A stretch of 64,000 nucleotides of DNA from contig CP070707.1 in assembly GCA_020350205.1 (NCBI GenBank), positions 3,163,563 through 3,227,562 on the forward strand, given 5' to 3'. The position numbers were made by a program, and so were the translations under genes. The number at the start of each line of letters is the position of its first letter. Position 1 is the stretch's first letter. The DNA comes from a bacterium. Lineage in GTDB: Bacteria > Calditrichota > Calditrichia > RBG-13-44-9. Under the pieces are notes generated by a model. It saw only the letters and a program-made list of their open reading frames with translations, was not told the DNA's origin and made no database searches. This document shows positions 38,186 through 61,207 of the stretch, piece by piece.

Positions 38186-38199
38186 GCAAAGGAATCGGT

Positions 38200-39273: not shown

Positions 39274-39301
39274 TTTGTTTAAACCCTTTAGAGGAAAAGG
39301 T

Positions 39302-39517
39302 ATGGAAGTAACCATCAAAGTACCGGATATGACCTGTGATCATTGTAAAATGACTATAGATAAAGCACTTAAAGGTGTTGCCGGAGTGACGGAAGTTCAG
39401 GTACTGCTTACGGAACATTGGGTTAAGGTATCCGGAAAGTCGGAAGTAAATCGAGTAATTCAGGCTATTCAATCCGCAGGATATACGGCCGAGGAAATTG
39501 TAAATTTAAAGCCGTAA
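39302..39517 (+). CDS. heavy-metal-associated (HMA) domain metallochaperone, CopZ-like
   Basis: MTCDHC (GMxCxxC-type metal-binding loop) in a ~70-aa ferredoxin-like layout; GAGGAAAAGG RBS before ATG 39302. Confidence 0.8.
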   Translation: MEVTIKVPDMTCDHCKMTIDKALKGVAGVTEVQVLLTEHWVKVSGKSEVNRVIQAIQSAGYTAEEIVNLKP

Positions 39518-39582
39518 TCAGGTATGATTAAGTTAGATCAGTTTTTTAATTATTCATGTGAAAAATATCTTTACAGGAGTTT

Positions 39583-40758: not shown

Positions 40759-40790
40759 TTGATAAAACCTTATTTGGAAAGGAGATAAAT

Positions 40791-42137
40791 ATGGCATCAA
40801 CAAAAATTGTCCTCTGTATAGTATTTTTCTTGGTGGCATATTCCCACTCTCAGGATCTTCCAGCAGGTGAAGAGGCTTTGGGTACTAAAAAGTATGAACA
40901 GTATGAAAGTCCGACTGTTTGTAAGAGCTGCCATGATAATTTCTATGAGCAATGGAAACAGGCTATGATGTCTCAGGCTTATACTCATCACTGGGATGAG
41001 ATTGAATACTTTAAATTGGCCGTTCCCCATGCAGAGAAGGATGAAAAGGTTGCCGGAGTTAAAGCGGGATGTAACGGTTGTCATGCTCCCATGGCTTTCA
41101 TGGCCGGTATAGTTCCCCCACCTAAACCAGAAGAAAATACGCGTGCGAATGAATCAGTTGCTTGTGATATCTGCCATACGATAATAGGATTTAAAGGAGA
41201 TATTCCTCATAATTTTAATTACATCTCGAATCCAGGAAGAACGAAATACGGTCCGAAACCAGGACTCTCCTCTCCACATCATGATACAGAGTATAACGAA
41301 TTTATTACTCAGTCAGAATTCTGTGGAACCTGTCATAATGAAATGAGTCCTTATGGGGTGTGGGTCAAAGCGACGCAGCTTGAATGGAAAGAGGGACCAT
41401 ATGCCAAAGAGGGAGTCCCCTGCCATCAATGTCATATGCCCAAGGCCAAAGGAAAGAATGCCAAAATGGCTAAGGAAGATATCGTTGCACAACATTTGTT
41501 CCATGGCGCCCATGACCCTGGGAAATTGGCCAGTGCTATTGAATTGAGAATGAATCCTCTGGAAAGAGAAGTCCCCTATGATGGAGTAGTATCTCTCAAT
41601 GTTCAACTTTTCAGTGCTAAACCGGGACACAAGTTCCCGACGGGCTCGGTTGAGGATCGAATTGTCTGGTTACATGTAACCGCAACTGATGCCGAAGGAA
41701 AAAGCTACCACCTGCCGGTGGACAAAAAAAGTTTTGCAGGTGAGGAATATACCATAGCGTCGGATGTATTGGCCTACCAGGATATGGGGATCGCATTGAA
41801 TGATCCCAATTTTCCCGGTGTGCAGCGGGATGGGGTGCCTATTGGGGACCGTATCTTCCGGATGCCTTATTTCGACCCGCAGGGCCGGATGACAATTCAA
41901 CAATGGAATACTAAATCTTTTGGAGTGGATTATCGGATCGGTCCCCGTGAGACGAAAATCGAAACTTTTACCTGGCAGTTACCTGATGATATAGCCCTTG
42001 GAAAAGTACATTTCACCGCAGAATTGAATTATAGCAAACTTGTTAAGCCAGTGGCTGACTTTTTAAAGGTTCCTGCAGAAGAAAGTGAAACGATATTAAT
42101 AAACAAGACAAATACCTGGGTTGAAGTATACGACTAA
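40791..42137 (+). CDS. periplasmic pentaheme c-type cytochrome with ~225-aa non-heme C-terminal domain
   Basis: AAGGAG RBS before ATG 40791. Signal peptide MASTKIVLCIVFFLVAYSHSQ. Five CxxCH motifs (CKSCH, CNGCH, CDICH, CGTCH, CHQCH) lie in the first ~235 residues; the remainder has no heme motif. There is no CxxCK, so it is not a canonical NrfA. Confidence 0.8.
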   Translation: MASTKIVLCIVFFLVAYSHSQDLPAGEEALGTKKYEQYESPTVCKSCHDNFYEQWKQAMMSQAYTHHWDEIEYFKLAVPHAEKDEKVAGVKAGCNGCHAPMAFMAGIVPPPKPEENTRANESVACDICHTIIGFKGDIPHNFNYISNPGRTKYGPKPGLSSPHHDTEYNEFITQSEFCGTCHNEMSPYGVWVKATQLEWKEGPYAKEGVPCHQCHMPKAKGKNAKMAKEDIVAQHLFHGAHDPGKLASAIELRMNPLEREVPYDGVVSLNVQLFSAKPGHKFPTGSVEDRIVWLHVTATDAEGKSYHLPVDKKSFAGEEYTIASDVLAYQDMGIALNDPNFPGVQRDGVPIGDRIFRMPYFDPQGRMTIQQWNTKSFGVDYRIGPRETKIETFTWQLPDDIALGKVHFTAELNYSKLVKPVADFLKVPAEESETILINKTNTWVEVYD

Positions 42138-42150
42138 AAGGAGAAATACC

Positions 42151-43377
42151 ATGCTCAAAAACTTTATTTATATTTTAATATTGATCGTTACTATTTTATT
42201 CATAGCATTGTTTCCGGAGGATGCAGAAGCCATCCCGGCTTTTGCCCGCAAATATAAAGTATCCTGTACTACCTGCCATGCTCCAATACCTAAACTAAAA
42301 CCCTATGGGGCAGAGTTTGCCGGCAACGGCTTTGTGATTCCCGAGGAAGAAAAAGAACGTGACTATATTACTGCAGGTGATAGTCTGCTCTGGCTTAACA
42401 GGAATTTTCCGATTGCCGTGAGATTTGATGCCTATGGGGTATATGATGATAAGGCACCCGTAGAAAACGATTTACAGCTTCCCTGGGGAGTGAAATTGCT
42501 TTCCGGCGGAAATTTGTATAAAAACATAGGGTATTATTTCTATTTTTACCTTTCAGAAAGGGGAGAGGTCGCCGGCATTGAGGATGCCTATATCCACTTT
42601 AATAATATATTTAATACCAATCTTGATGTGATGGTCGGTCAGTTTCAAACCTCCGACCCCCTGCTGAAAAGGGAATTACGTCTTACCTTTGAGGATTATA
42701 CCTTCTATACCAAACGGGTCGGTTTCTCGAAAATCAATCTAACCTACGATCGTGGTATCATGATGCCCTATACAATCGATAAAACCGGTACCGACCTGGT
42801 ATTCTTGGTGGTTAATGGTGCTGGAATCGGGGATGCCGGGGAGGATCGTAAATTTGATGATGATAAATTTAAAAATTATGGATTTAGAATCAACCAGGCT
42901 GTTGGTGAGTTTGCCAGTATCGGCGCTTTTATTTATTACGGAAGAGAGAGGGTTACAGATACTCTGGGTGTCAATGATAATGAAGTGACCTACATTGGCC
43001 CAGATGTCAATTTGACCGTAGGTAAATTCGAACTTACCGGACAGTACCTGTTACGTAAGGATACGAATCCATTGTTTATACCCAGTGCAGAGTCGAAGAA
43101 CACCTCCGCAATCATTGCTGAGATTATCTTTGCTCCTAAAAAAGAACGCTCCCGTTACTACTTCACATTCTTATATAACTGGGTAGATTCTGATCTCAAA
43201 GAAGAGGATTTTGCACCTCTCGCTCCTTATTTTGAATTCAATTCCCTGCAATATCATACCGCGACCTTGAACTGGACTTACGAGTTGGCGCGGAATCTAC
43301 GTTTTCTGGTGGAATTAACCCGGGATATTGAGCTGGAAGCGAACCGTGGGGTTCTGGGAATAGTCAGTGCGTTCTAG
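42151..43377 (+). CDS. outer-membrane beta-barrel protein with single N-terminal CxxCH heme motif (Cyc2-like fused cytochrome-porin candidate)
   Basis: AAAGGAG RBS immediately after the upstream stop, with ATG at 42151. Signal peptide MLKNFIYILILIVTILFIALF. The mature N-terminus is AFARKYKVSCTTCHAPIPKLKPYG, with one CTTCH. The ~360-aa rest shows an alternating amphipathic beta-strand pattern and ends ...LGIVSAF (terminal Phe). Confidence 0.6.
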   Translation: MLKNFIYILILIVTILFIALFPEDAEAIPAFARKYKVSCTTCHAPIPKLKPYGAEFAGNGFVIPEEEKERDYITAGDSLLWLNRNFPIAVRFDAYGVYDDKAPVENDLQLPWGVKLLSGGNLYKNIGYYFYFYLSERGEVAGIEDAYIHFNNIFNTNLDVMVGQFQTSDPLLKRELRLTFEDYTFYTKRVGFSKINLTYDRGIMMPYTIDKTGTDLVFLVVNGAGIGDAGEDRKFDDDKFKNYGFRINQAVGEFASIGAFIYYGRERVTDTLGVNDNEVTYIGPDVNLTVGKFELTGQYLLRKDTNPLFIPSAESKNTSAIIAEIIFAPKKERSRYYFTFLYNWVDSDLKEEDFAPLAPYFEFNSLQYHTATLNWTYELARNLRFLVELTRDIELEANRGVLGIVSAF

Positions 43378-47212: not shown

Positions 47213-50200
47213 ATGCGCATTTATTTTATTCTTCTGCTTATTCTCACCTATTTTGCCCAGGCCCAGGAAGTTCTTCCGCCCAGTGATGGCGGTTTCACAA
47301 AATCTATGGGGCAACCTCAGATATACAAACCGTACATCGGTTTTTCGCTGGGACACAGTTATCCGGCGGTGGATGATAAATTAATTGCCCAGTTCAGGTT
47401 AGGCGTGTACCGGGATTTAATGAATCCCATGTACAGTGTACTGGGTATTTCCGCGGAAGGGTATATAGGGAGTCTTCGCACTAATGAAGATTTTGGATTC
47501 CGGGCGATGATTGAAATGCCTGCATTACGACTGGCAGGCGGACTTGATTACAATTATGAAGTTGAGCGTCTTGATTTTATCCTTCGGATAACAGCTGCGG
47601 TGAGGCGGGGAGGTATTTTTGGAAGGGGGACTGACCTGCGCCTTGAATGGTTACCGGCGCGAGGAAATACCTATAATCTGGGAATCGGAATACCTATTTT
47701 CCAACCTAATCGCGGAAAAACCCGCCCTAAAAGGGACTATGTCAGACTCACAGCCCCTAAACCACCACAAATTCCGAAGGTGCCTGGTATTCCGGCCTTG
47801 GAGGAAGCTCTCAATAATATCCGTGAAAGTGCCCGCTGGATTAATCGGCTTACCACACCCTATTATGATTATGCAGGGGCCGATCCCTTTGCCGCGATTG
47901 CTGACTCCATGAAAGCACTAAAAAAACATTTGAATTCCCGTAATATCAATTTCCCGAATGGCAGGAACAGTGAAGCAGAGGTTCGCTTTTTCCATCAGGA
48001 ACTGGAGCGCGCATTTTCAATGGCAATTTTGGGCGAGTCGCTGGTGATGGGAGAGTCGGTTAATGAGGGTAGAGAGGTTGCGGCACAGGCAAGAAATATT
48101 ATTCTGGAGAGAATATTATATCCCTATAACCGTTTACTTGGTCAGAAAAAAAATAGTGATTCCATATTGGAGTTTGCCAAAACAGCCCGCGGTAAGATGG
48201 CTCGCTGGATGACACAATCTGATGTAATTCCACCTGAAAGAATTGATGCAGTCCGTTATGTATTCCAGGAAATTATAGCAATTATCGAAGAAAATCGTGC
48301 CTATTCAGCCAAAATCTGGAAGGATTCCAGACTGGTATGGCTTCCCCTGCAATATGCGCTTCTCCCAGAGCAGCATGACAGTCAGCAAGAGCTGGATAAA
48401 ATTATTGAGGGTGCCACCGGTCAGCGATTTACTGAGGGGAATAAAATCTGGTATATCATTAATGAAGAGTTTCAATATGAGGTGGCTCGACAGATCCATG
48501 CTGCCCGTGACTATCATATATTATGGATTCATGATATTGATGCGTTTGATGCGGGTGGAGACCCCGACACACTTACTTTTCTGCAGATCAAGGATTCCTA
48601 TTTTCAGGCTATGATAGACCGAATCAGAGAATATGACGATACCGGCAAACTTCCCGTTTTTATGATTTTTCTGGATCAGTTTTTTTATCAGGCCAATAAA
48701 ACTCGAACCTGGATGAGGTTGTTAGAAAAACCCCTGACCTATAGTCTCAAGTTATCCGACAAATCCATGGAACAAGCGCTGACGGAAAAACTGACAGAAC
48801 TGCGCCGAGCAATCAATAGGTCGAAACTGTTGCAGGCGGAGATTCAGGAATACGGGGAAGAATGGCTGCATAACCTGATAAAGGTCCACGTGAATATTAC
48901 CAATCCGGCGGATATCTCATTCTGGAGCAGGGGTATCCTTCCCATACTTGGAACCCCCGATCTGATTTCCCGGGATCATCGCAAAATATCATTTTATGAC
49001 GTTTCGGAGGAGGATCCTTACCAGGGTGTCATGATGATTGGGGGTATGGGTATCGGAGAACATTATGCTGGCCCAACCTGGGATGACCGCGGTATACTCG
49101 TCCAGGGTCCTGCCGCACTTGATTTAAAATATGCGGCCAGGCAACTTCTGCTGGATCAAGGATTTGAAGAACAGGAAATTCCCTATCCGTTGCAAATAAG
49201 ATCTAAAGCGAGTGATTATGCAAGGGCGGTGCAGGATACAATTCGAGTCTGGAGTAAAAAAGGATTCACCCTGGCAAAAGTAAAGCAATTACATAATCAA
49301 ACCGGTTATCATCCCAAAATGGTCAGCGTTGCCAATGCAGTGATGTATTCATTAATGCCCCGGCGAACCTTTCAGATTATTCCGGATAGTTTATGGGATA
49401 GTGATTTCTGGTTGGCCATTCTTCTCGGTAATTCTTTACGGGGAGGCTGGATAAGCATTCAGGCACCGGCTCTGGAAAATGCTCCCAGTGCCGGTTTTCC
49501 TCAAATGTCCCGAACCCAGGAGTTGTTGGCCCGGCATGTAGTGATCCAGGAGATATTGTCAGAAGAGATTGAAGCAGCAGGGGGAATGTTCAGAGCAACA
49601 TTATACAACCCGGATGAGGATGTGGCCGATTTTGCCGGACAACTGAAAGAGTTTAAACATCGTTTCGAGAGTGACAAAAATTTACAGGAACTTTTTCCAT
49701 TTCATCCTTCCATATACCGTATGTTGGACAGTATGATCCAGGTATTAAGTGAACAGCAAATCGCTTATCTGTCCTCTGACGCCGTGGTGAGAAAACCAAA
49801 ACTCCACGCAAAAATTAATTTGTTCGCTTCTCTGGATGTGGTCCGTGATTTATTGATCATGCCTGAGTTTGCCTCGGTTTTCAAGTCTTATATACTGCAG
49901 CGAGTTGCTCAGGCCACAGAATATGGAGAAGTCGGAAATGTCAGGGAAAAAGCAGAGAAATTTTTACAGGTAGCCAGAGACTGGGTTATAAAATATCGGG
50001 ATAATACACCCCAGGAGGACCTGGAAAAGTTGGTATTTTATTTTAAAGTGGGAACCATGAATCAGAATTATCGCAGTAAAGTGTTCGATGGAGAAGCGGT
50101 GGTATTAATATCGGGGGTCTATAGTATTTATGGTTTAATGGATATGATTTTCCGAATCGGTTTAACCACACCGATAGAAGACCTGGAAACTTTAGAGAAA

Positions 50201-50263
50201 CATCTTCCCCAGTATGGGGGTACGAAAAGAGCTATTGGTCGCTGGATTCGAACCACACTCTAG
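47213..50263 (+). CDS. large secreted protein of unknown function (1016 aa)
   Basis: Signal peptide MRIYFILLLILTYFAQAQ, then a beta-rich first ~170 aa and a ~840-aa mixed alpha/beta remainder. I recognised no confident family. A weak PLD-like pair (HAKINLFASLD ... GTMNQNYRS) has non-canonical spacing. Confidence 0.6.
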   Translation: MRIYFILLLILTYFAQAQEVLPPSDGGFTKSMGQPQIYKPYIGFSLGHSYPAVDDKLIAQFRLGVYRDLMNPMYSVLGISAEGYIGSLRTNEDFGFRAMIEMPALRLAGGLDYNYEVERLDFILRITAAVRRGGIFGRGTDLRLEWLPARGNTYNLGIGIPIFQPNRGKTRPKRDYVRLTAPKPPQIPKVPGIPALEEALNNIRESARWINRLTTPYYDYAGADPFAAIADSMKALKKHLNSRNINFPNGRNSEAEVRFFHQELERAFSMAILGESLVMGESVNEGREVAAQARNIILERILYPYNRLLGQKKNSDSILEFAKTARGKMARWMTQSDVIPPERIDAVRYVFQEIIAIIEENRAYSAKIWKDSRLVWLPLQYALLPEQHDSQQELDKIIEGATGQRFTEGNKIWYIINEEFQYEVARQIHAARDYHILWIHDIDAFDAGGDPDTLTFLQIKDSYFQAMIDRIREYDDTGKLPVFMIFLDQFFYQANKTRTWMRLLEKPLTYSLKLSDKSMEQALTEKLTELRRAINRSKLLQAEIQEYGEEWLHNLIKVHVNITNPADISFWSRGILPILGTPDLISRDHRKISFYDVSEEDPYQGVMMIGGMGIGEHYAGPTWDDRGILVQGPAALDLKYAARQLLLDQGFEEQEIPYPLQIRSKASDYARAVQDTIRVWSKKGFTLAKVKQLHNQTGYHPKMVSVANAVMYSLMPRRTFQIIPDSLWDSDFWLAILLGNSLRGGWISIQAPALENAPSAGFPQMSRTQELLARHVVIQEILSEEIEAAGGMFRATLYNPDEDVADFAGQLKEFKHRFESDKNLQELFPFHPSIYRMLDSMIQVLSEQQIAYLSSDAVVRKPKLHAKINLFASLDVVRDLLIMPEFASVFKSYILQRVAQATEYGEVGNVREKAEKFLQVARDWVIKYRDNTPQEDLEKLVFYFKVGTMNQNYRSKVFDGEAVVLISGVYSIYGLMDMIFRIGLTTPIEDLETLEKHLPQYGGTKRAIGRWIRTTL

Positions 50264-52088: not shown

Positions 52089-52826
52089 GTGACCAAGAAA
52101 TCAGACAGTGAGATGTTATCGATTGTCAGGGGGAAAATCAAAGAGGGGGCAAATTCCGAGCTCTCGCTTACCCGTCCCTTTGTATCCCTCTCCTTTGCTC
52201 AAAGCCTGGATGGGAGTATCTCTCTGCATCCTTCAGCCCCGGTCAGATTAAGCAATATTCATTCGCAAAGTTTTACGCACAGTTTACGTGCCATCCATAA
52301 TTCGATTCTCATCGGTATCGGTACCCTTCTTGCTGACGATCCCCAGCTTACTGTACGTCTGGTTTCGGGGGAAGATCCTATACCGGTAGTGGTGGATAGC
52401 CATCTTCGTTTTCCGACTCATTCCAAGCTGTTGCGGAAAAACACGATCAAACCATGGATCGCCTGCACGTCTGAAATAAGTGATGGGAAAGTTGACATTA
52501 TCCAGAAAAGTGGTGGAGAGATAATTCCCTTGCCGGCTTTATCCAATGGATGGGTCAATTTATCTTCGCTGATGCAACATCTTCATGATAGAGGTATTCG
52601 CTCGGTGATGGTTGAGGGGGGTGCCCGTATTATCACCAGTTTTTTACGGGAGAGACTGGCGGACCAGATTATTCTGACGATTGTCCCGATGATTCTGGGG
52701 GGATTTCGGGGAGTGCGGGAGCTTGAAAACATCGTCTCCCCCTTTATTACAAATCTTAAAAATATAAATTATGAACTGATCCAGGATAATCTGATTGTCC
52801 GGGGTGATCTTAATTATCAGGTATGA
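52089..52826 (+). CDS. stand-alone RibD C-terminal-type (DHFR-fold) pyrimidine reductase
   Basis: RPFVSLSFAQSLDGSIS matches the RibG/RibD reductase-domain N-terminal consensus (P.V.LK.A.SLDG.I); Rossmann-like remainder (MVEGGARI). No deaminase domain is present. It uses a GTG start. Confidence 0.6.
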   Translation: MTKKSDSEMLSIVRGKIKEGANSELSLTRPFVSLSFAQSLDGSISLHPSAPVRLSNIHSQSFTHSLRAIHNSILIGIGTLLADDPQLTVRLVSGEDPIPVVVDSHLRFPTHSKLLRKNTIKPWIACTSEISDGKVDIIQKSGGEIIPLPALSNGWVNLSSLMQHLHDRGIRSVMVEGGARIITSFLRERLADQIILTIVPMILGGFRGVRELENIVSPFITNLKNINYELIQDNLIVRGDLNYQV

Positions 52827-53875
52827 TGAAAACCCAGAAACTTTTTTTTGAAAAAAAGAAGACCATTGTAATTCACGAGGAAAGATTGGGATCTCCGGGT
52901 CCCGGGCAGGTCCTGGTTGAGGCGAAGTATTCAGCAATCAGTACCGGTTCCGAAATGGTATTGTTCCGCGGTGATTTCCCGGAGGGGATGACCACTGATA
53001 TGTCGCTCAATTCCCTGGCAGGAGTCATGAAATACCCGCTTTCTTATGGTTATGCACTGGTGGGGAAGGTTATTGAAATTGGAAAAAATACAGATCCGGA
53101 ATGGCTGGATAAAAGTGTCTTTTTGTTTCATCCGCATCAGTCATATATCGTGGTTCCTCAGACCGAACTTTTCCTCATCCCTCCGGATCTCAATGAGAAA
53201 AATGCGTTATTTCTTCCCAATATGGAAACTGCCATCGGATGTGTTATGGATGCGGCGCCGCTTCTGGGAGAAAATGTTGTCATTTTTGGACAGGGAGTCG
53301 TGGGTCTTCTGACAACATCCGTGCTGGCAAAATATCCCTTGAATCGGCTAGTTGCGGTAGATCCGTTGGAGAAAAGAAGGATAACCGCAAAAAATATCGG
53401 GGCGAATGCTGTATTCGATCCAGGAGATAAAAATTTTTTTGACGAAATTCACGATATGTTTCGTTCGAAGACACATCTAACAGATCAGCAAAGTGGTCCT
53501 GATCTCATATTTGAAATGTCCGGAAATCCAGAGGTTTTAAATACGGCTATTTCTATTGCCGGTTATCATAGCCGTATTATCGTTGGATCTTGGTATGGAA
53601 CGAAAACCGCCCATTTGAACCTGGGTGATAGATTTCATCGGAATCGGCTGCGGATTATCAGCAGCCAGGTGAGTACCATTCAGCCAGACTTACGGGGACG
53701 CTGGAATAAGGAAAGGCGGATGGAATTGGTATGGTCATGGTTGAAGCAGGTCACTCCTTCGAGATTGATTACCCATTACATTCCATTTTCCGAGGCACAA
53801 TCTGCTTATGCCTTGTTGGATGAACAGCCGGAGCAAGCCTTACAGGTTGTTTTGACATATGAAGGGAGAACCTAG
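52823..53875 (+). CDS. medium-chain dehydrogenase/reductase (MDR) family oxidoreductase, non-classical Zn site
   Basis: GroES-like N-domain, then GYALVGKV in place of the GHE..G motif, and Rossmann VVIFGQGVVGLL. It overlaps the upstream gene by 4 bp and abuts the next. Confidence 0.65.
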   Translation: MMKTQKLFFEKKKTIVIHEERLGSPGPGQVLVEAKYSAISTGSEMVLFRGDFPEGMTTDMSLNSLAGVMKYPLSYGYALVGKVIEIGKNTDPEWLDKSVFLFHPHQSYIVVPQTELFLIPPDLNEKNALFLPNMETAIGCVMDAAPLLGENVVIFGQGVVGLLTTSVLAKYPLNRLVAVDPLEKRRITAKNIGANAVFDPGDKNFFDEIHDMFRSKTHLTDQQSGPDLIFEMSGNPEVLNTAISIAGYHSRIIVGSWYGTKTAHLNLGDRFHRNRLRIISSQVSTIQPDLRGRWNKERRMELVWSWLKQVTPSRLITHYIPFSEAQSAYALLDEQPEQALQVVLTYEGRT

Positions 53876-54252
53876 TGTATACAGTGACTGTAATCCGGGA
53901 TTTTATGGCACAACATTATTTAATTGGTGGTGACTGGGGAGATGAAAACAACTGGCATACCCATCATTATGAGGTTGAGGTACAGCTGCAGGGTAAACAG
54001 CTGGATCGGCATGGGTATCTGGTCGATATTGTTGAAATAGAAGACGCTCTGAGCCAGGTAATCTGGTATTTCAAAGACAAAACTCTGAATGAATTACCGG
54101 AATTTAATCAGCTAAATCCCAGCATCGAACATTTTTCCCGAATCATAGGTGAAATGTTTGCCCGGAAAATTTCCACACAAAATTTGACTGCCCTGGTTCT
54201 CAAGTTATGGGAACATGAAGCCGCCTGGGCATCCTATACATTGAAATTTTAG
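53875..54252 (+). CDS. 6-pyruvoyl-tetrahydropterin synthase/QueD-fold protein lacking the catalytic Cys
   Basis: 125 aa. FMAQHYL and NNWHTHHYEVEV reproduce the QueD/PTPS zinc-His layout (H...HxH), but the position of the catalytic Cys (C-x3-HGH) is occupied by Glu (DENNWHTHH). Confidence 0.6.
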   Translation: MYTVTVIRDFMAQHYLIGGDWGDENNWHTHHYEVEVQLQGKQLDRHGYLVDIVEIEDALSQVIWYFKDKTLNELPEFNQLNPSIEHFSRIIGEMFARKISTQNLTALVLKLWEHEAAWASYTLKF

Positions 54253-54354
54253 ATAGGTATTTTCCCGGCTATTTATGTCTGAGCAAATGATGATGTTTCC
54301 TTAGATATATGAATGTTTATGCATGTCTGTTTATAATTTTAAGATATAATCAAA

Positions 54355-55383
54355 ATGAAATTCCAATTCTTCCTGCCAGATATTTTAGATTTTCCCACCG
54401 GCGGTAATATATTTAACCAGCATTTCATGCAACAACTGGCCCGATCTCACGAAGTAGATCAGATCATTGTATCACCAAAAAAAAAGGTTAATATACCAGA
54501 CACAGTAGAACTGGAAACCGATACCTGTTGGCTGATCGATAGCCTGTTAACAGGTCATCAGGAATTAATTAAAAGTATAGCGGACATCAATATTTCGTAT
54601 GGGAAATGGCTGTTGGTCCATTATCTGAATATGCTGGATCCCGCCCATGCGTCTGGTCCTGATACCGATGAAGAGAGGAAGAATTTAGCTCACTTCGACG
54701 GCTATATTGTAACCAGCCGGTATTCGAAAAATCAATTGATGAATAACGGAATTCCCGCAAGAAATATTGTTGTCATTCAACCGGGAATCAATGAAAGATT
54801 TTTGGTAAGACGCAAGCCCCGCATAGTCGTACAGTTACTCACGGTCTCCAGCATTTTCCCCGGGAAAGGTTTGTTGGAATTTCTGAAGGTTCTGGAGAAT
54901 CTGTCCGATTTACCCTGGCAATGGATTCTGATAGGTGCGGACGAGCTTGATCCTGAATTTACAGCGGAGTTTTTACGACACATCGGCAGCAGCCGTTTGA
55001 AAAATCGTATCCAGATTCTGGGACCGCTTTCTCAGGTTAGCCTTTTTCAGATCTATAAGCAGAGTGATATATTTGTGCTGAATTCGCGATTTGAGTCCTG
55101 CAGTATGGTTACCATGGAAGCTATGAGTTTTGGATTGGCCATTCTGGCGAACGAGGTGGGAGGATTGCCGGAATTGGTGCAATCTCAGGAGAACGGTTAT
55201 CTGGTTCCGCCGGGAGATAGAGATCAGTTTAGCGAAGTTTTAAGGAAGTTGATCTCCAAACCTGATTTGCGAATCTCACTGGGAGAAAAAGCATTCCATA
55301 GCAGCCGTTCTTTTCCGAGTTGGCCGCAATGTGCGAAAAAATTTTTAAAATTTTTAGAATCTCACCCAACACCGCAGACATAA
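54355..55383 (+). CDS. GT4-family glycosyltransferase
   Basis: N-terminal DFPTGGNIFNQHFMQQLARSHEV and the C-terminal GT-B donor domain with E-x7-E (ESCSMVTMEAMSFGLAILANEVGGLPELV). Confidence 0.75.
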   Translation: MKFQFFLPDILDFPTGGNIFNQHFMQQLARSHEVDQIIVSPKKKVNIPDTVELETDTCWLIDSLLTGHQELIKSIADINISYGKWLLVHYLNMLDPAHASGPDTDEERKNLAHFDGYIVTSRYSKNQLMNNGIPARNIVVIQPGINERFLVRRKPRIVVQLLTVSSIFPGKGLLEFLKVLENLSDLPWQWILIGADELDPEFTAEFLRHIGSSRLKNRIQILGPLSQVSLFQIYKQSDIFVLNSRFESCSMVTMEAMSFGLAILANEVGGLPELVQSQENGYLVPPGDRDQFSEVLRKLISKPDLRISLGEKAFHSSRSFPSWPQCAKKFLKFLESHPTPQT

Positions 55384-55499
55384 CGGACTTATAATTAAAA
55401 TATCCGATGGTATGTGCAAATTCAAGCATCTTAAATTTTTGGTGTTGTTTGTATCATGAAATCTTTAATATAAAAATAAATTAAATTATATTTTTTGAA

Positions 55500-56210
55500 A
55501 TGATTCATACTGAAAAAACTGTCCGCAGCTGGTTCGATCAACTTTACAAGCAAAAGCAGCTCAAAAGTATGCGCCAAATTGATGCGTATACTGTTTATCT
55601 GGATCACCTGGAGGTGGAACCAGAGAAAAAATTCCTTGACATTGGATGCGGACCGGGTTTGCTTCTGAAAACTGCCCGGGCGAGAGGGCTGCAAACCTAT
55701 GGTATTGATCTTTCCCCGCAAGCGATTTCCCTGGCTTCTCAAACCTCCCCTGATTCTCAACTACAGGTAGGGAATGTTACCCAAATCTCCTACCCGGATA
55801 AAAGCTTTGATTATATCACCTGTATTGGTGTTTTAGAGCATTTTCTGGAAATGGACAAATCCATCAGTGAATTGAAACGTATTGCGAAAGATGATGCGCG
55901 TTATTGCATAATGGTTCCTAATTCCCGTACACTATACTGGAAAATTTCAGAAAGATTCAGCCGTACCCATCGTGAGAGCAATGAAAATGCCCGAAGTTTG
56001 CAAGAATGGCAAGATTTATTTTCCCATTATGAGTTTAAGATCCGGGTGGTTCATCGAGATGACTGGCAGATCCGAAAATTTTTTATTATCTTGGGTTTGG
56101 GCACGTTTCCGCAACTCACGGCATTTGTTAAAAAGATACTCTGGAAAATCATCCCTTTAACTTTTGCCCATCAGTTTATCTTTATTTTGGAAAAGAAAAA
56201 CCATGTCTGA
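55500..56210 (+). CDS. class I SAM-dependent methyltransferase
   Basis: Motif I FLDIGCGPGLL, motif post-I YGIDLS, and the conserved acidic/hydrophobic motif II (ITCIGVLEH). Confidence 0.75.
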   Translation: MIHTEKTVRSWFDQLYKQKQLKSMRQIDAYTVYLDHLEVEPEKKFLDIGCGPGLLLKTARARGLQTYGIDLSPQAISLASQTSPDSQLQVGNVTQISYPDKSFDYITCIGVLEHFLEMDKSISELKRIAKDDARYCIMVPNSRTLYWKISERFSRTHRESNENARSLQEWQDLFSHYEFKIRVVHRDDWQIRKFFIILGLGTFPQLTAFVKKILWKIIPLTFAHQFIFILEKKNHV

Positions 56211-57069
56211 GCGTAAATCATCATCGGATACCCGACTGTCAGAACTGTACGAAAATCTCTCCCGCTATTCATACAATATAAACCGGTTAAAAGGTAAATC
56301 CCGTTTTACCATGCACAAACCGTTACAGATTCCTGCTGAAGTCCAACACCTTTATGTGGACAAGGATAAATCAAATTATTTGGATGACCTGGTGTTAATC
56401 GAGGCAGGTTTACCGGAAAATCCTCGGGTGCTGGATGCCGGATGCGGATTTGGGGGATCCATATTCCGCTGGAATCATCTCAGACCCGGTATATACCATG
56501 GTATGACCCTGAGCAACTATCAGAAGAGTATTGCCTTGAGAGAGGCGCAGCGTCGCGGGGTGAGCGCAAATTGTATGTTTTATGTACAGAACTATTTGGA
56601 GCCGATCAACATCAAATATCATGGGATAATAGCCATTGAATCTCTTATTCACAGTTCGGATCTTAATGCTACTTTGTCAAATTTTACTCAGGCATTGCTT
56701 CTGAAAGGTAAACTGGCCATCGTCGATGACATGTCTCGGGATGAACAAGTACGTCATGAAGAAGACTACCAATTGTTGAAGGATTACTGGTATTTAACAG
56801 ATATCCCTTCCGAAATGGACTATGTTGAGCTTCTGGGAAAAAACAATTTGAAAATTATCTCTAATCTGGATTTAACCCCACAGATTCGTTTCAATTCGGA
56901 TCGATTACTGAGTCAGAAAATAAGAAGAACGAAATTTCTTTTGCGCCTCATGCCCATCAAATCTTTGAGGATCTTTCTGAGAACACATCTGGGGGGCTTT
57001 GCTTTACAAAAATTATATAATAAAGGAATGATGAAATATCAGCTTATAGTTGCACAGAAGGAATCTTAA
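56203..57069 (+). CDS. class I SAM-dependent methyltransferase
   Basis: ATG 56203 overlaps the upstream stop (ATGTCTGA). Motif I VLDAGCGFGGS, HGMTLS, and IIAIESLIH. The ORF is open from 56164. Confidence 0.7.
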   Translation: MSERKSSSDTRLSELYENLSRYSYNINRLKGKSRFTMHKPLQIPAEVQHLYVDKDKSNYLDDLVLIEAGLPENPRVLDAGCGFGGSIFRWNHLRPGIYHGMTLSNYQKSIALREAQRRGVSANCMFYVQNYLEPINIKYHGIIAIESLIHSSDLNATLSNFTQALLLKGKLAIVDDMSRDEQVRHEEDYQLLKDYWYLTDIPSEMDYVELLGKNNLKIISNLDLTPQIRFNSDRLLSQKIRRTKFLLRLMPIKSLRIFLRTHLGGFALQKLYNKGMMKYQLIVAQKES

Positions 57070-57821
57070 ATTTTGTCTGCTCTCAAAATAATGCCGCCCT
57101 GTAAAAAATGTAAACCTATCAGTTTTCCTATTAAATCCAACCTGCCTAGAAAACTCCCCCAGTATTTGGACATGTCCCCCCGCGGAATAAAGCTCCAATA
57201 TTCAGTCTGAATCCTATTGAATCCGGATTCGGTAAACAGCGCCTTTAATTCAGATGCAGGCAGAAACAGATCGGTTGATAGATGGCGCGTGGAATATCCA
57301 AATAAAGGGGCGATCAGGCGATACCATATATATTTACCATTGGGGGTCATGAGTATTATTCTTCCTCCCGGTTTGAGAACCCGATAAAATTGCCTGACGA
57401 CTTTGGTCTTTTCCAGCATGTGCTCGAAGGCACCAATACACATCACCAGATCTACACAACTGTCTTCTATGGTTTTTAATTCCTGCGCATAATCTACCTG
57501 AAATTGCAGCTTGTCGGCATGAGGTGATTCATTCCGTGCTTTCTGGGCGGATTCAATCATGTTCCGGGAAAAATCCACCCCGATGCCGTATTTAATAACA
57601 GGGGCGATATAGTACAGGTGATGACCATTTCCACATCCCACATCCAGAACCACATCCTGAGTATTCAGGTGACCCAACTTATGCAGCTGTTCCATTCGAT
57701 ATTGCAACAGTCGGCCTGAATCTCCGTGGGCTTCCCGATATTCCGGGGCTGTTTCCTCAAAAAACTGCCGAATATCGCTTTCAGAATTACATTGACGGGT
57801 CTGTAGTTTTTTTGATGTCAT
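57066..57821 (-). CDS. class I SAM-dependent methyltransferase
   Basis: Motif I VLDVGCGNGHH, YGIGVDFS and MCIGAFEHM. The ORF is open to 57935, but starting at the internal Met (MTSKKLQ, 57821) avoids overlap with the upstream gene. Confidence 0.7.
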   Translation of the reverse strand: MTSKKLQTRQCNSESDIRQFFEETAPEYREAHGDSGRLLQYRMEQLHKLGHLNTQDVVLDVGCGNGHHLYYIAPVIKYGIGVDFSRNMIESAQKARNESPHADKLQFQVDYAQELKTIEDSCVDLVMCIGAFEHMLEKTKVVRQFYRVLKPGGRIILMTPNGKYIWYRLIAPLFGYSTRHLSTDLFLPASELKALFTESGFNRIQTEYWSFIPRGDMSKYWGSFLGRLDLIGKLIGLHFLQGGIILRADKI

Positions 57822-57825
57822 ATTA

Positions 57826-59643
57826 CTATTTAATATTTGAGATTGAAATTCCGCTTTGTAGATACCGGGGCAGGCTTTTTTCGGAAGTATAATGCTGACT
57901 GAGTAATCGAACCAATAAGGAGTAGATACCTTCATGCCGCATTGTACTCGGTTGCTCCGGGTTCAGCAATAACCCTGTGGAAAATCCATACTCCTGTAAT
58001 GAAAATAGAAATTCCTGGTCCTGAGAGATGACATGAAGGGGGGTAGCAAAACTGGGATTTTCCTCTGTTATAATGGGAGGTTGATGATCTCCCAGTATGA
58101 CAATGATACTGTTAGGATTGATTTCATTCAGAATGAAATCCCGGATCATTTTAATTTCATAAATCATATGCTCCAGATATTCATTAATGCCGGTGCCGGT
58201 AGAAATGTTTAATTTAAAAGTTTCCTGAAGTTTTTCAGAAGTGTGCTGATATTTTTCCTGTAGTTGTGCACGGTTTATGGCTTGGATATCACGCCAGTTT
58301 TCCGCATAGGGGGGGAGATCTAACCAGGGAGAATGTGAACTAACCGTGAGAAAAAACAGAAAGCAGGGTTTCCCTGCTTTTTGCAGAAATTTTTCATTGG
58401 CATAATTCAGGCTGTATTGGTCTGGAATATTCCTGAAACCAAAAGCCGGGCCGTCAAAATCCAAATCCTCAAAATTGATCAGTGTTTGATATTGATAAAA
58501 TTTTTCATAACTGTTCATGGAAAATCCCGGTCTTACCCGGTTCAGCGGTTGTAATGCAAAAGTATGGTATCCTTGTATATTAAAGAAATGAACCATGTGA
58601 GGATAATTGCGTGTACGGTTGATCAAAAATGAATATACAGCTTCGTCTTTAATATGGATGCCGGTGATAAAGGATCCCATTGTAAGCCAGGAACGACCAC
58701 CAAAAATGGGGGCTTCGCTGAAAGTGCTGTATGCGTTCCACCTTTCTCCGGATAGCGTATCTTCTACACTTTTCATCCAGTGAGTGTATACTTCTCGGCT
58801 CTGGGGATGATCCAGCAGAATTCTACCATAGGATTCCACCAAAAAGATATAGATATCCGGCCGTTGTTCAAGCCGGATGTTGCGGTAATGATAATAGGTT
58901 GAATCTGCTGGAGAATCTGTTATACTATGCAGAAAACTGCGCAGTTTAAATGATTTTTCAACAGTGCTCACGATTTTTGGACTTATCCAGTGGATGGTGG
59001 TACGATAATCACTAAAATTGAACCAGAGGTTATTGATTATGATAATGAATCCTATTGAAATTCCAATTATCATGAATTTTCGGGAATGCATAAACCGCCT
59101 GAATCCGTCGCGAATGCCATGAAACAGAAAGGGAATGACTGAGAATACAATCCCTAAAATCAACACCACCAGCATCATTTCGAAGAGCTTTTTGGTTAAG
59201 GAAATATCAATGATCAGGTAAAATGCCCCTTTGAGTAACATGAGATCGTTGTATAAAATTGGCGGTTCGCCGAATAGCAGAATCATGAGATTGTGATAAA
59301 TCTGAAAAGTGAGTAGAAAAATATAACTGCCGGTTATAAATCGATAGATCCAGGCGGACCAGTTAAGTTTAAGACTAACGAACAAAAGAACCAGTATGAG
59401 ATAGTATTCCGCTATCAGCCTGAAGAAATCCTGATTCTCGCGGCGCAGGAAAAAAAGCAAGGTATCGTACCATCCCCGCGGTGCATCCAGCGGGGGAAGG
59501 GGAATCCAGGAAACCTGGGCCGGAGAGAATAGCGTCTGGGGCAGAAAAAGGAGGATGTTGAGTAAAATCAGGGAGAACCAGAAGAAGACCGGATTTTCCT
59601 TCAGCTGGGATAGAAATCGTTTCAGTTTTTGGAGTGAATCCAT
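57826..59643 (-). CDS. membrane-anchored alkaline-phosphatase-superfamily transferase (LtaS/MdoB-like sulfatase-fold)
   Basis: About 5 N-terminal TM helices, then an extracytoplasmic ~400-aa domain with TVSSHSPW and ILGDHQPP motifs reminiscent of LTA-synthase/phosphoglycerol-transferase enzymes. Confidence 0.5.
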   Translation of the reverse strand: MDSLQKLKRFLSQLKENPVFFWFSLILLNILLFLPQTLFSPAQVSWIPLPPLDAPRGWYDTLLFFLRRENQDFFRLIAEYYLILVLLFVSLKLNWSAWIYRFITGSYIFLLTFQIYHNLMILLFGEPPILYNDLMLLKGAFYLIIDISLTKKLFEMMLVVLILGIVFSVIPFLFHGIRDGFRRFMHSRKFMIIGISIGFIIIINNLWFNFSDYRTTIHWISPKIVSTVEKSFKLRSFLHSITDSPADSTYYHYRNIRLEQRPDIYIFLVESYGRILLDHPQSREVYTHWMKSVEDTLSGERWNAYSTFSEAPIFGGRSWLTMGSFITGIHIKDEAVYSFLINRTRNYPHMVHFFNIQGYHTFALQPLNRVRPGFSMNSYEKFYQYQTLINFEDLDFDGPAFGFRNIPDQYSLNYANEKFLQKAGKPCFLFFLTVSSHSPWLDLPPYAENWRDIQAINRAQLQEKYQHTSEKLQETFKLNISTGTGINEYLEHMIYEIKMIRDFILNEINPNSIIVILGDHQPPIITEENPSFATPLHVISQDQEFLFSLQEYGFSTGLLLNPEQPSTMRHEGIYSLLVRLLSQHYTSEKSLPRYLQSGISISNIK

Positions 59644-60326
59644 ACCAGGTCTCTTCCGAATGAATAAAGTAACAAAATTGTGGCAATCACCACTGCGGGT
59701 TTATATAACCAGGGTACAGGAAGAAAAGCAGCCAATAGAACGCCGATGACATAAACAAAGATATAACGGCCCCATTTGAATCGTCTTTCTTTCTTGTCCC
59801 GTTCTCCCAGAATGAATAAATAAACAATGAAAAGGTAGCGAAGCAAACCTAAAATAACTGTCCAGGGCCATAATAAGGATTTCAAGATGGCTATCATGAC
59901 CCAGATGTGAAGGAAATAAGCGTCGGTTTCTTTATCAAAATATTCTCCGAACATTGAAGATTCATTTCGATCTCGGGCCAGCATCCCGTCCAGGCCGTCT
60001 GCAATCAGAATAATAAGACCGAAACCGGCGATAAAAATGTTTGGAATTTTCAGGTAAAAAAGGGCAGTGACTGAAATTAGGAAAAGACGACCGAAAGTGA
60101 GTAAGTTGCCCAGACCAAAACGGGTGGTGGGAGTCCATTGATTTTTCTCTCTGAGTACAAGGAATAAAAAAGAGAAATTTCCAATTAACACCAGCAAAAG
60201 CAACGAATGGGTGATAAAACTGATTAACGTTGCGATTAAAATGAGTACCGCATGGAGATTGGTCCAATTGCGAAATCGGTTCCCCATGTGTTGATCCTGT
60301 GATGAAAAGCTATGTTTATTCATCAT
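59622..60326 (-). CDS. CDP-alcohol phosphatidyltransferase family protein
   Basis: DGLDGMLARDRNESSMFGEYFDKETDAY fits D-G-x2-A-R-x8-G-x3-D-x3-D exactly; polytopic membrane protein; 234 aa. Confidence 0.8.
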   Translation of the reverse strand: MMNKHSFSSQDQHMGNRFRNWTNLHAVLILIATLISFITHSLLLLVLIGNFSFLFLVLREKNQWTPTTRFGLGNLLTFGRLFLISVTALFYLKIPNIFIAGFGLIILIADGLDGMLARDRNESSMFGEYFDKETDAYFLHIWVMIAILKSLLWPWTVILGLLRYLFIVYLFILGERDKKERRFKWGRYIFVYVIGVLLAAFLPVPWLYKPAVVIATILLLYSFGRDLVWIHSKN

Positions 60327-60367: not shown

Positions 60368-61207
60368 TTAAAATCCGAGTGTCATAAAGGTAATACCCAC
60401 CAGAATCCCAAAGATTACATTGAAGCTTTTGATGACCAAGGAGTTTTTTACGGAATAGGATAAAAGCGGAATCAGTCCATGCCCGTTTTGGATGATAGAG
60501 GAAGTCAACAGTACACTGAACGGGATTAGTCCATCGCTGAACATGAAAACAAAAATAAACTGCGGTGCTACATCCGGAATCAAACCCACCAGAACAGCCA
60601 GTAAAAGTACCAACTGAGGGTGGGCGCTGACGAAACCCCGCAGATCAAAATAGTGTTCGCCCAGGTGAACAAACCAGATGGCCAGGAAGGTCCAGATGAA
60701 GATACGCCATATATGTTTTTTTAAAATATGAGACCAGAGGTGTTCTCTGAGATAATGTTTGAAGGAAGTTTCATCCCGGTGGTATACGATATCTTCGCAT
60801 TCACATTTATCATCTATTTTAAATAAGCGGATAATAAAATCGGTGATATAAGCGAAAAAAATTCCCAATCCAACCAGGAGCAGGTGCAGAATCAGGGCAG
60901 TTTTTGGAAAGAGGGCAAACATTAAGAGTGCTGCTTCACCGGTGGTGGCGATCATGCCGCCTACAATCGCTCCCATGGTCAGATAACCGTGCATGTACAG
61001 TGAGACATTCATATAACTTCCCATACATCCCGGGGTAAGACCCAAAAGCCCGGCCACTGTATATTGTTTCATTTTACTATCGGCAATCCAGGAGGGTAAA
61101 CGTCCACGGGTTCGGACATCCAACCAGTCAATAATCACCATCATAACAAAAACCAGGCCGGTAATCTGCAGGGCATGCAGGATAATGTCGGGTTCAAATA
61201 GACTCAT
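60368..61207 (-). CDS. polytopic membrane protein of unknown function
   Basis: 279 aa with about 8 predicted TM helices and a central Cys/His-rich cytoplasmic loop (DDKCECEDIVYHRDETSFKHYLREH). It is co-directional with the lipid-type genes upstream. Confidence 0.5.
   Translation of the reverse strand: MSLFEPDIILHALQITGLVFVMMVIIDWLDVRTRGRLPSWIADSKMKQYTVAGLLGLTPGCMGSYMNVSLYMHGYLTMGAIVGGMIATTGEAALLMFALFPKTALILHLLLVGLGIFFAYITDFIIRLFKIDDKCECEDIVYHRDETSFKHYLREHLWSHILKKHIWRIFIWTFLAIWFVHLGEHYFDLRGFVSAHPQLVLLLAVLVGLIPDVAPQFIFVFMFSDGLIPFSVLLTSSIIQNGHGLIPLLSYSVKNSLVIKSFNVIFGILVGITFMTLGF

Follow-up and report, generated by a model that had tools for sequence, protein, structure and literature searches.

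The 64-kb window analysed here, meaning the whole stretch of Calditrichia DNA under study, carries a run of six genes on the plus strand at positions 52089-57069. An earlier note had described this run as a cluster in which two enzyme folds of GTP-derived heterocycle metabolism are combined with a dehydrogenase, a glycosyltransferase and two methyltransferases. All six open reading frames (ORFs) were confirmed as real, and domain calls made with Pfam and NCBIfam agree with that description, including the PTPS/QueD fold without its Cys. The run opens with a RibD_C reductase (52089-52826, 245 aa; Pfam RibD_C, 2e-40), followed by a putatively zinc-less NAD(P) dehydrogenase of the MDR family (52823-53875, 350 aa; ADH_zinc_N, 5e-12), a T-fold PTPS-like protein (53875-54252, 125 aa; Pfam PTPS, 1e-25), a GT4 retaining glycosyltransferase (54355-55383, 342 aa; Glycos_transf_1, 6e-27), the class I SAM methyltransferase MT1 (55500-56210, 236 aa; Methyltransf_11, 2e-20) and a second SAM methyltransferase, MT2 (56164-57069; weak matches to Methyltransf_31 and CMAS). 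Consecutive overlaps of 4 bp and 1 bp among the first three genes are consistent with an operon. MT2 probably starts at the ATG at 56203, because its homologue in the related locus L001 is 288 aa long. None of the six proteins attains a curated equivalog cut-off in NCBIfam. We tentatively read this operon, with a convergent partner operon, as an uncharacterised conserved pathway that would build a decorated heterocycle from the product of GTP cyclohydrolase II (GCH-II) and not from that of GTP cyclohydrolase I (GCH-I).

Conservation of the neighbourhood, on which the earlier note had made its reading depend, was examined by seeking relatives in one genome per GTDB species. At least 577 genomes hold a relative of the PTPS-like protein, and the best 80 loci were taken; for 86 related loci the six-frame ORFs were searched with the window proteins and the neighbours clustered. 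The database contains around 6,900 homologues of the PTPS-like protein at E ≤ 0.001, and the family forms 54 clusters at 50% identity with E ≤ 1e-30. The nearest named homologues lie in Calditrichia metagenome-assembled genomes (MAGs; 73-74% identity), then in many Chloroflexota (62-66%), and the best 80 loci derive from Chloroflexota, Calditrichia, Binatia, Desulfomonile and other Desulfobacterota, Phycisphaeraceae and the cultured Firmicute Cohnella silvisoli. The order RibD_C, MDR, PTPS, GT4 on one strand is kept in most of the 86 loci (Chloroflexota, Calditrichia, Binatia, Desulfobacterota and Cohnella), and the usual complete order in relatives is GCH-II, RibD_C, MDR, PTPS, GT4, methyltransferase. 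Counting only loci with enough flanking sequence, we see MDR in 64/75, RibD_C in 48/65 (53-62 of 86 before this correction), GT4 after PTPS in 63/70, a methyltransferase of about 300 aa (“c4”) after GT4 in 47/64, GCH-II in 36/55, the small membrane protein DUF7475 in 18/64 and a CDP-alcohol phosphatidyltransferase in 12 of 43 bacterial loci. The cluster is thus syntenic across phyla and domains, and this recurring synteny across phyla rules out chance juxtaposition of its genes.

The RibD_C protein has as its best PDB matches the true pyrimidine reductases 7LRH and 2AZN, and falls below the NCBIfam cut-offs of both TIGR00227 (147.3 bits vs 150.15) and TIGR01508 (117.9 vs 186.45). With the Rib7 (ArfC) and RibD/RibG reductases it shares the fold and the catalytic and ribosyl-phosphate-binding residues: across 53 cluster homologues, S55, R67 and E176 are present in 53/53 and D83 in 52/53, in agreement with the reference enzymes. 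It differs from them in having neither ring-recognition signature. The position of Lys151 in Bacillus subtilis RibG is Ser, Thr or Ala in the cluster family (S35 in the window protein), and the positions of Asp33 and Arg36 in Methanosarcina mazei Rib7 are Ser or Ala and Leu, Met, Phe or Tyr (S59 and F62 in the window protein). We take Lys151 to be the residue of bacterial RibG that recognises the 2-oxo substrate, and Asp33/Arg36 to be those of archaeal Rib7 that recognise the 2-amino substrate, roles that Chen and colleagues reportedly described in 2018. The cluster also differs from these systems in that it has no deaminase domain or gene and places RibD_C in a non-riboflavin operon. A canonical RibD C-domain split from its deaminase, which had been raised earlier as a way in which the whole proposal could fail, is ruled out by the synteny and by the loss of both specificity signatures. 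The protein is best regarded as a candidate stand-alone ribosylaminopyrimidine reductase of a third specificity class, although the lack of both signatures leaves its ring recognition unexplained.

The likely origin of its substrate is suggested by the related loci, 47 of 86 of which have GCH-II fused to or adjacent to the cluster. GCH-II occurs there as an N-terminal fusion to RibD_C (430-505 aa), as a gene directly upstream or, in Cohnella, directly after the PTPS gene. Fusions are seen in many Chloroflexota and Binatia (e.g. L003:4098-5453 and L017:7554-8942; also L012, L025, L026, L028, L031, L037, L041, L044, L053, L055, L060, L063-L067, L072, L073 and L082). A second kind of fusion, of MDR to PTPS in a single 494-aa ORF, is found in a ‘delta proteobacterium’ MAG (L083:8897-10381), where the GT4 that follows is split into two ORFs, possibly by a frameshift or an assembly error. 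Each catalytic residue of GCH-II (the zinc ligands Cys54/65/67, Tyr105 and Arg128) is kept in at least 46 of the 47 cluster copies, most of which are about 50% identical to Escherichia coli RibA; these enzymes should therefore make 2,5-diamino-6-ribosylamino-4(3H)-pyrimidinone 5'-phosphate (DARPP). The GCH-II::RibD_C fusion implies that the GCH-II product is the RibD_C substrate, and the two kinds of fusion, together with gene order, place both GTP-related folds in one route initiated by GCH-II. A GCH-I gene was not among the recurrent neighbours of the related loci. Most likely, then, both folds serve a single GCH-II route and not GCH-I plus GCH-II. The co-occurrence of the two folds had been taken as the sign of a pathway, and this part holds; the accompanying idea that the PTPS fold draws on GCH-I and 7,8-dihydroneopterin triphosphate is, given the fusions and gene order, probably incorrect. 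The absence of a riboflavin or queuosine operon context is also borne out, and scans of the window and 10 related loci for FMN, THF and preQ1 riboswitches were negative.

The T-fold protein belongs to the PTPS superfamily (Pfam PF01242, 90.6 bits against a cut-off of 22.4). An AF2 model (pLDDT 95.8) gave Foldseek TM scores of 0.8-0.92 to 3D7J, 4NTK and 1GTQ, with a TM score of 0.92 and rmsd of 1.5 Å to 3D7J, the Streptomyces protein SCO6650, vs 0.80 to E. coli QueD; 3D7J is also the best PDB match by sequence (9e-16). In common with QueD and PTPS-I to III (COG0720), it has the Pfam family, the T-fold, the His metal ligands and, at the equivalent position, the C-terminal Glu that anchors a 2-amino-4-oxo ring. 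Conservation within the subfamily extends to the His triad and the Glu-x7-Tyr ring-anchor motif, and H14, E24, N25, H28, H30, D68 and E113 are invariant (alignment A1). The window protein differs from QueD and PTPS in its motif E24-N-N-W-H28-T-H30 (E-x3-H-T-H), which puts a Glu at the position of the QueD catalytic Cys, and in having Asp-Lys for the catalytic Asp-His pair.

Three diagnostic motifs have been defined for the PTPS family (CxxxHGH, CxxxxxHGH and ExxHGH; PMC5041015), and the window protein has none of them. The QueD motif CxxxHGH is absent, and the score against the QueD equivalog TIGR03367 is 48.2 bits vs a cut-off of 89.25; the protein is likewise below the PTPS cut-off in NCBIfam. 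Ahead of the His pair the protein lacks any Cys, which the PTPS-II motif CxxxxxHGH requires, and compared with the PTPS-III motif ExxHGH the Glu lies four residues before the first His, Asn occupies the -3 position and the pair reads H-T/S-H. Neither queC, queE nor queF was found among window neighbours, Pfam-annotated contexts or annotated recurrent neighbours, and neither folE nor folK among window neighbours or annotated recurrent neighbours. FGPAQ, the signature of the PTPS-IV subfamily (PMC5445326), is also missing, the equivalent stretch being W-G-x-E-N. The protein does share with PTPS-IV a neighbourhood containing GTP_cyclohydro2 and RibD_C, of the type found for that subfamily with AGeNNT (PMC5445326), and its closest overall similarity is to SCO6650. 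By these comparisons the window protein appears to be sister to PTPS-IV/SCO6650. An exact-sequence look-up of its GTG-start version returned no record. A member of the same T-fold subfamily in Legionella wadsworthii (L089:10001-10378, WP_031565402.1) stands alone with no partner genes within 10 kb, which indicates that not all family members belong to the cluster system; its annotation as QueD is probably wrong.

The dehydrogenase has no ADH_N Pfam match and no Cys in residues 1-139, and thus does not qualify as a zinc-dependent alcohol dehydrogenase; classical catalytic or structural zinc binding is not expected. Its best NCBIfam matches, PRK10083 and BchC, lie far under their cut-offs. Conserved motifs (SA.S.GTE, YGY, LPN.ETA, GSWYG.K and RW.K.RR) run through 72 homologues, archaeal ones included, and the window protein is 41% identical to a Natrialba homologue and 31% identical to one from Streptomyces. 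We regard it as a putative zinc-less NAD(P) dehydrogenase, either BchC-like or polyol-dehydrogenase-like.

The GT4 protein has the Glycos_transf_1 C-terminal domain that marks its family, and its best PDB matches are MshA and BshA. None of its listed PDB matches is named as a pteridine glycosyltransferase (BGluT/PGT), a result obtained with no comparison to reference sequences of those enzymes. Between Bacteria and Archaea the canonical cluster GT4s share 36% identity, and the window protein reaches only 25-27% with them (L040:10393-11496 and L093:9385-10494). MT1 has homologues in three close Calditrichia relatives alone (L001, L002 and L007), and MT2 is 27% identical (1e-18) to a methyltransferase (‘c11’) that lies between MDR and PTPS in some Anaerolineales clusters. 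MT1 and MT2 are lineage-specific replacements for the usual single methyltransferase of about 300 aa. Together with the divergent GT4, this suggests that the product is decorated differently in this Calditrichia lineage.

The convergent operon that adjoins the cluster on the minus strand comprises a third SAM methyltransferase, MT3 (57066-57935; Methyltransf_11, 1e-20), a polytopic membrane protein with a sulfatase-fold domain (57826-59643; Pfam Sulfatase, 9e-09, residues 329-526), a CDP-alcohol phosphatidyltransferase (hereafter CDP-OH transferase; 59622-60326; Pfam CDP-OH_P_transf, 3e-17) and an ArsP_2/arsenic-efflux-type permease (60368-61207; NCBIfam NF037962, 129 bits vs a cut-off of 100). 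MT3, a probable accessory of this operon, likely starts at Met39; the L001 homologue is 251 aa long. The sulfatase-fold protein has a hydrophobic N-terminal half and the architecture of LtaS/EptA-like phospho-headgroup transferases, and is a putative lineage-specific accessory with a presumed role, its gene and that of MT3 being syntenic only in L001 and L007. The permease gene that closes the operon is syntenic in close Calditrichia relatives.

The CDP-OH transferase belongs to a cluster-associated subgroup of its family. Its family motif, D(x)2DG(x)2AR(x)8G(x)3D(x)3D, is complete, with D110, D113, G114, A117, R118, G127, D131 and D135 invariant (alignment A2), and beyond this motif the window protein has LGL.RYLF, a C-terminal F.RD(W/L)V and an N-terminal extension in common with the cluster copies of Chloroflexi and haloarchaea. 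With the Streptomyces cluster copy it shares 30% identity. It falls short of the PgsA, PIP synthase and PssA equivalogs (best pgsA, 28.3 bits vs 109.1), and the Natrialba and Chloroflexi cluster copies are likewise under all NCBIfam cut-offs. Cluster-linked copies are found in Chloroflexota, two Calditrichia lineages, Binatia, Syntrophales, Natrialbales and Streptomyces. In the 12 of 43 bacterial loci counted above the gene lies within about 7 kb, compared to a rough 2-3% by our own estimate of chance, and its variable position and strand point to selection rather than inherited synteny. By this evidence the CDP-OH transferase is a conserved member of the system in both Bacteria and Archaea. 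The earlier proposal, in which the cluster serves no housekeeping function but yields a GTP-derived heterocycle bearing sugar or methyl groups, is a reasonable reading, and the interval on which it was based left this conserved gene out.

Other recurrent membrane or lipid partners are DUF7475, LPG_synthase_TM and a PlsC-type acyltransferase, to which the window adds its LtaS-like protein. Together with the CDP-OH transferase, these partners suggest a phosphodiester-linked and probably lipid-anchored product. The combination recalls the logic of phosphatidylinositol mannosides and mycothiol, with which it shares a PgsA/PIP-synthase-like CDP-OH transferase, a MshA/PimA-like GT4 and sometimes a PlsC-type acyltransferase. 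It differs in that the alcohol is not inositol, no inositol-phosphate synthase being present; the alcohol-forming enzymes are here those of a GTP pathway and the T-fold protein.

The usual gene order in relatives is colinear with a series of steps that we propose for the pathway. First, GCH-II would convert GTP to DARPP; in the window organism this enzyme is presumably a housekeeping RibA encoded elsewhere in the genome. The RibD_C protein would then use NADPH to reduce the ribosyl group to ribityl ahead of any deamination, giving DARIPP, a 2-amino compound not otherwise formed in bacteria. In a third step the zinc-less MDR would oxidise a ribityl hydroxyl, most simply the C2'-OH, so that the second and third steps would together be the net equivalent of the Amadori rearrangement in GCH-I, and the 2'-ketone would condense with the 5-amino group to yield 7,8-dihydroneopterin 3'-phosphate. 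The T-fold protein would act with the MDR, its Glu113 holding the 2-amino-4-oxo ring, either to aid ring closure or to rework the side chain; His14, His28 and His30 would bind the metal, Glu24 is the likely base and Asp68-Lys69 would replace the Asp-His pair. The MshA/BshA-like GT4 would attach a sugar and the methyltransferases would methylate. Finally, the CDP-OH transferase would link the compound or its glycoside by a phosphodiester to a CDP-activated partner, most likely CDP-diacylglycerol, and the outcome would be a membrane-anchored conjugate. Observed directly are the genes present, their synteny, the fusions, the conserved residues and the relationship to the Streptomyces SCO6650 locus. 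We consider the early steps to be moderately well supported and the product to be presumptive, as are the order of the MDR and T-fold steps, the site of oxidation, the assignment of the product as a pterin and the lipid linkage. In its fullest form, as a GCH-I-independent pteridine route to a glycosylated, methylated head group on diacylglycerol or archaeol and so to a new class of membrane lipid, the proposal is possible but on balance unlikely.

A pterin made from a GCH-II product has a counterpart in the chlamydial bypass of GCH-I, in which, as Adams and colleagues reportedly showed in 2014, RibA and TrpF yield dihydroneopterin phosphate. That bypass is said to differ in that an isomerase carries out the Amadori rearrangement directly and the product feeds folate synthesis, whereas here a reductase and a dehydrogenase would together have that net effect, and the product would carry sugar and methyl groups.

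The archaeal versions of the cluster, which were collected by an exhaustive profile search and cluster look-ups, are instructive with regard to the substrate. Haloarchaeal members include many Natrialbales, Halorussus, Halorubrum luteum, Halalkalicoccus and Halopenitus. In Natronorubrum bangense (L087) and Natrialba (L093) the order is DUF7475, CDP-OH transferase, MDR, PTPS, GT4, methyltransferase; Halorussus (L094) has MDR, PTPS, GT4 and methyltransferase, and an archaeal MAG (L090) has MDR, PTPS and GT4. RibD_C and GCH-II are found in none of these four loci. The archaeal riboflavin route reduces before it deaminates, so DARIPP is native to archaea (PMC3403918; ArfA/ArfB/ArfC, PMC8305020), and the absence of both genes is what would be expected if DARIPP were the substrate of the MDR and T-fold enzymes. 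Bacteria deaminate first and would need a private reductase. On a bacterial, Syntrophales-like contig (L092), the CDP-OH gene is divergent from a RibD_C-MDR-PTPS-GT4-methyltransferase run. Two candidates for a conserved ORF of about 200 aa upstream of the haloarchaeal clusters were mutually unrelated and without a family match, and the idea was dropped.

A further version is the Streptomyces locus of the SCO6650 type (PTPS-IV, PDB 3D7J, SCO6648-6655), whose T-fold protein is, by both sequence and fold, the closest match of known structure to that of the window. In the copy that we examined (L095) there are genes for a CDP-OH transferase, MDR, PTPS-IV, GT4, a methyltransferase-like protein, LPG_synthase_TM, a creatininase-family protein and GCH-II. 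Its MDR, GT4 and CDP-OH transferase are each homologous, pairwise, to the window proteins, which identifies the window cluster as a variant of the Streptomyces system. The window variant is distinguished by a T-fold protein with a full His triad, a private RibD_C and other tailoring enzymes: SCO6650 has FGPAQ..HGA, lacks the third His and the Glu24 equivalent and is reported to contain no zinc, whereas the window subfamily has G.EN.WH(S/T)H with the full triad, and no RibD_C lies within 9 kb in Streptomyces. The GCH-IIs also differ, those of the window's relatives keeping the Tyr105 that is Met in Streptomyces. The Streptomyces GCH-II (L095:13119-14608; ‘LRAMALQ’ at this position) adjoins the creatininase-family gene, a pairing reminiscent of archaeal ArfA and ArfB, where a formamidopyrimidine is formed first and then deformylated; a Met-type GCH-II is reportedly, from the work of Spoonamore and Bandarian, a formamidopyrimidine-producing variant used with a deformylase, and SCO6655 is likewise said to produce FAPy. 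The 120 best matches of SCO6650 are nearly all from Streptomyces and at least 91% identical. Released in 2008, the SCO6650 structure still bears the label “uncharacterized”, and no functional study of PTPS-IV, PTPS-V, SCO6648-6655 or this gene combination was found in the searchable literature.

Several points weigh against the GCH-II pathway as we have drawn it. A tblastn search of the window found no GCH-II, so the cyclohydrolase that the earlier note had suggested looking for was found in the relatives only. The activities of the enzymes, like the product, are predicted. The path of reducing and then oxidising to reach an Amadori-type product is chemically roundabout, and the MDR may instead follow the T-fold enzyme and serve as a reductase, like sepiapterin reductase. 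In Streptomyces, the missing RibD_C and the loss of one triad His and of the Glu24 equivalent imply that neither a zinc-dependent step nor a cluster-encoded reductase is universal. The divergence of GT4 and methyltransferases from the canonical set means that the window lineage may make a variant product. As for the lipid linkage that we infer, the CDP-OH family is also able to make soluble phosphodiesters, and the gene is nearby in only about a quarter to a third of the loci. Lastly, Zallot et al. (2016) cite unpublished work that links PTPS-IV to F420 synthesis (PMC5041015), a different end product.

The strongest competitor is a soluble pterin glycoside made by the classical route, which we rate as distinctly unlikely. 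GCH-I or MptA would supply dihydroneopterin (tri)phosphate, the PTPS-like protein would form a 6-acyl-tetrahydropterin, the MDR would serve as an analogue of sepiapterin reductase, and GT4 and the methyltransferases would complete the product; RibD_C, with its DHFR-like fold, would keep the pterin reduced, and the CDP-OH gene would be unrelated or would form a soluble phosphodiester as in the halopterins. Pterin glycosides of this kind are known in the form of cyanobacterial biopterin glucoside and cyanopterin, Chlorobium tepidopterin and Sulfolobus solfapterin. It speaks for such a product that the minimal universal core is MDR-PTPS-GT4, with archaea lacking RibD_C and GCH-II, and that the GT4 resembles MshA and BshA, which act on small molecules. 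In addition, all characterised PTPS-fold enzymes use dihydroneopterin (tri)phosphate, and in tetrahydrobiopterin synthesis PTPS acts ahead of a reductase (PMC5041015). The classical route does not explain, however, why 47 loci should have a true GCH-II as a fusion with RibD_C or as a gene within the operon, nor why RibD_C should retain its ribosyl-phosphate-binding and catalytic residues. It also has to contend with the lack of a GCH-I gene among recurrent neighbours and with a CDP-OH link that spans two domains with shared subgroup motifs.

It is improbable that the cluster instead supplies precursors for riboflavin or F420, with GCH-II and RibD_C making a ribitylaminopyrimidine for FO/F420, the T-fold protein filling a missing step, and the GT4, methyltransferase and CDP-OH genes being neighbours for other reasons. 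The remark of Zallot et al. on PTPS-IV (PMC5041015) and the presence of GTP_cyclohydro2 and RibD_C near PTPS-IV (PMC5445326) favour this view, as does the closeness of RibD_C to the TIGR00227 cut-off. It would leave the GT4 that follows PTPS in 63/70 loci and the methyltransferase in 47/64 as bystanders, and neither a deaminase, a lumazine synthase nor an FO synthase is seen among the annotated recurrent neighbours. The lack of an FMN riboswitch in the window and 10 related loci and the loss of both riboflavin-type specificity signatures from RibD_C also argue against such a role. Moreover, the archaeal clusters lose just the riboflavin-like genes and retain MDR-PTPS-GT4.

Least probable is a lipid head group of the aminopentanetetrol (APT) type, for which the metal-dependent T-fold enzyme would free the 5-phosphoribitylamine of DARIPP for N- or O-methylation and attachment to lipid by the CDP-OH transferase: APT does share the carbon-nitrogen-phosphate skeleton of ribitylamine 5-phosphate, its mono-, di- and tri-N-methyl and O-methyl forms are known (PMC6423904), literature mentioning aminopentanetetrol yielded nothing on its biosynthesis, and the window has three methyltransferases, a CDP-OH transferase and an LtaS-like protein, but APT lipids are reported from Methanomicrobiales and Aquificae and not from cluster-bearing lineages, APT was present in 1/13 strains (a member of the Methanomicrobiales) and not in Natrialbales strains (PMC6423904), the universal MDR and GT4 would have no role, and GTP would be a wasteful source of a C5 amino-alcohol.

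Under the GCH-II reading, an orphan family related to PTPS-IV is tied to a defined set of six to nine genes, with copies that range from Streptomyces and Chloroflexota to haloarchaea. This reading names GCH-II and not GCH-I as the likely entry point, accounts for a private RibD_C in bacteria and none in archaea, and links the pathway to a dedicated CDP-OH transferase and membrane proteins in a manner that is testable. The system is akin to GTP-derived pteridine or cofactor-type biosynthesis, with a substantial chance that the product is a categorically new lipid head group. If true, the proposal would mean that biology has a second way of making pterins; it would also give SCO6650/PTPS-IV a function and might reveal a new class of lipid. 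Even a soluble product would be a new cofactor-like metabolite of very wide phylogenetic spread.

Some individual loci and neighbouring genes deserve mention. In Cohnella silvisoli NL03-T5 (L068:6838-11152), RibD_C, MDR, PTPS and GCH-II form one block without GT4. The gene beside this block is divergent and encodes an NRPS condensation domain; in this species the core may lead to another product. Two Chloroflexi loci (L004:5727-7553 and L006:3722-5674) have a phage-integrase-family gene between the cluster GT4 and methyltransferase, and as L005 is otherwise identical but has no integrase, a recent insertion of a mobile element into the operon is suggested. Promoter and terminator scans gave counts like those of shuffled sequence. 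The genes upstream of the cluster in the window are housekeeping or unknown, and unrelated to it. They include a plus-strand ORF of 1016 aa (47213-50263) that matches no Pfam family at E ≤ 1e-5; ahead of it are a 211-aa ORF without a match and DUF3943 and DUF481 proteins. Further upstream, a plus-strand gene run at 37286-43377 encodes a phosphate acetyl/butyryl-transferase, an acetate-kinase-family protein, an ODP-type protein of the metallo-beta-lactamase fold, a 418-aa protein without a family and a multihaem cytochrome c resembling c554/MtrC.

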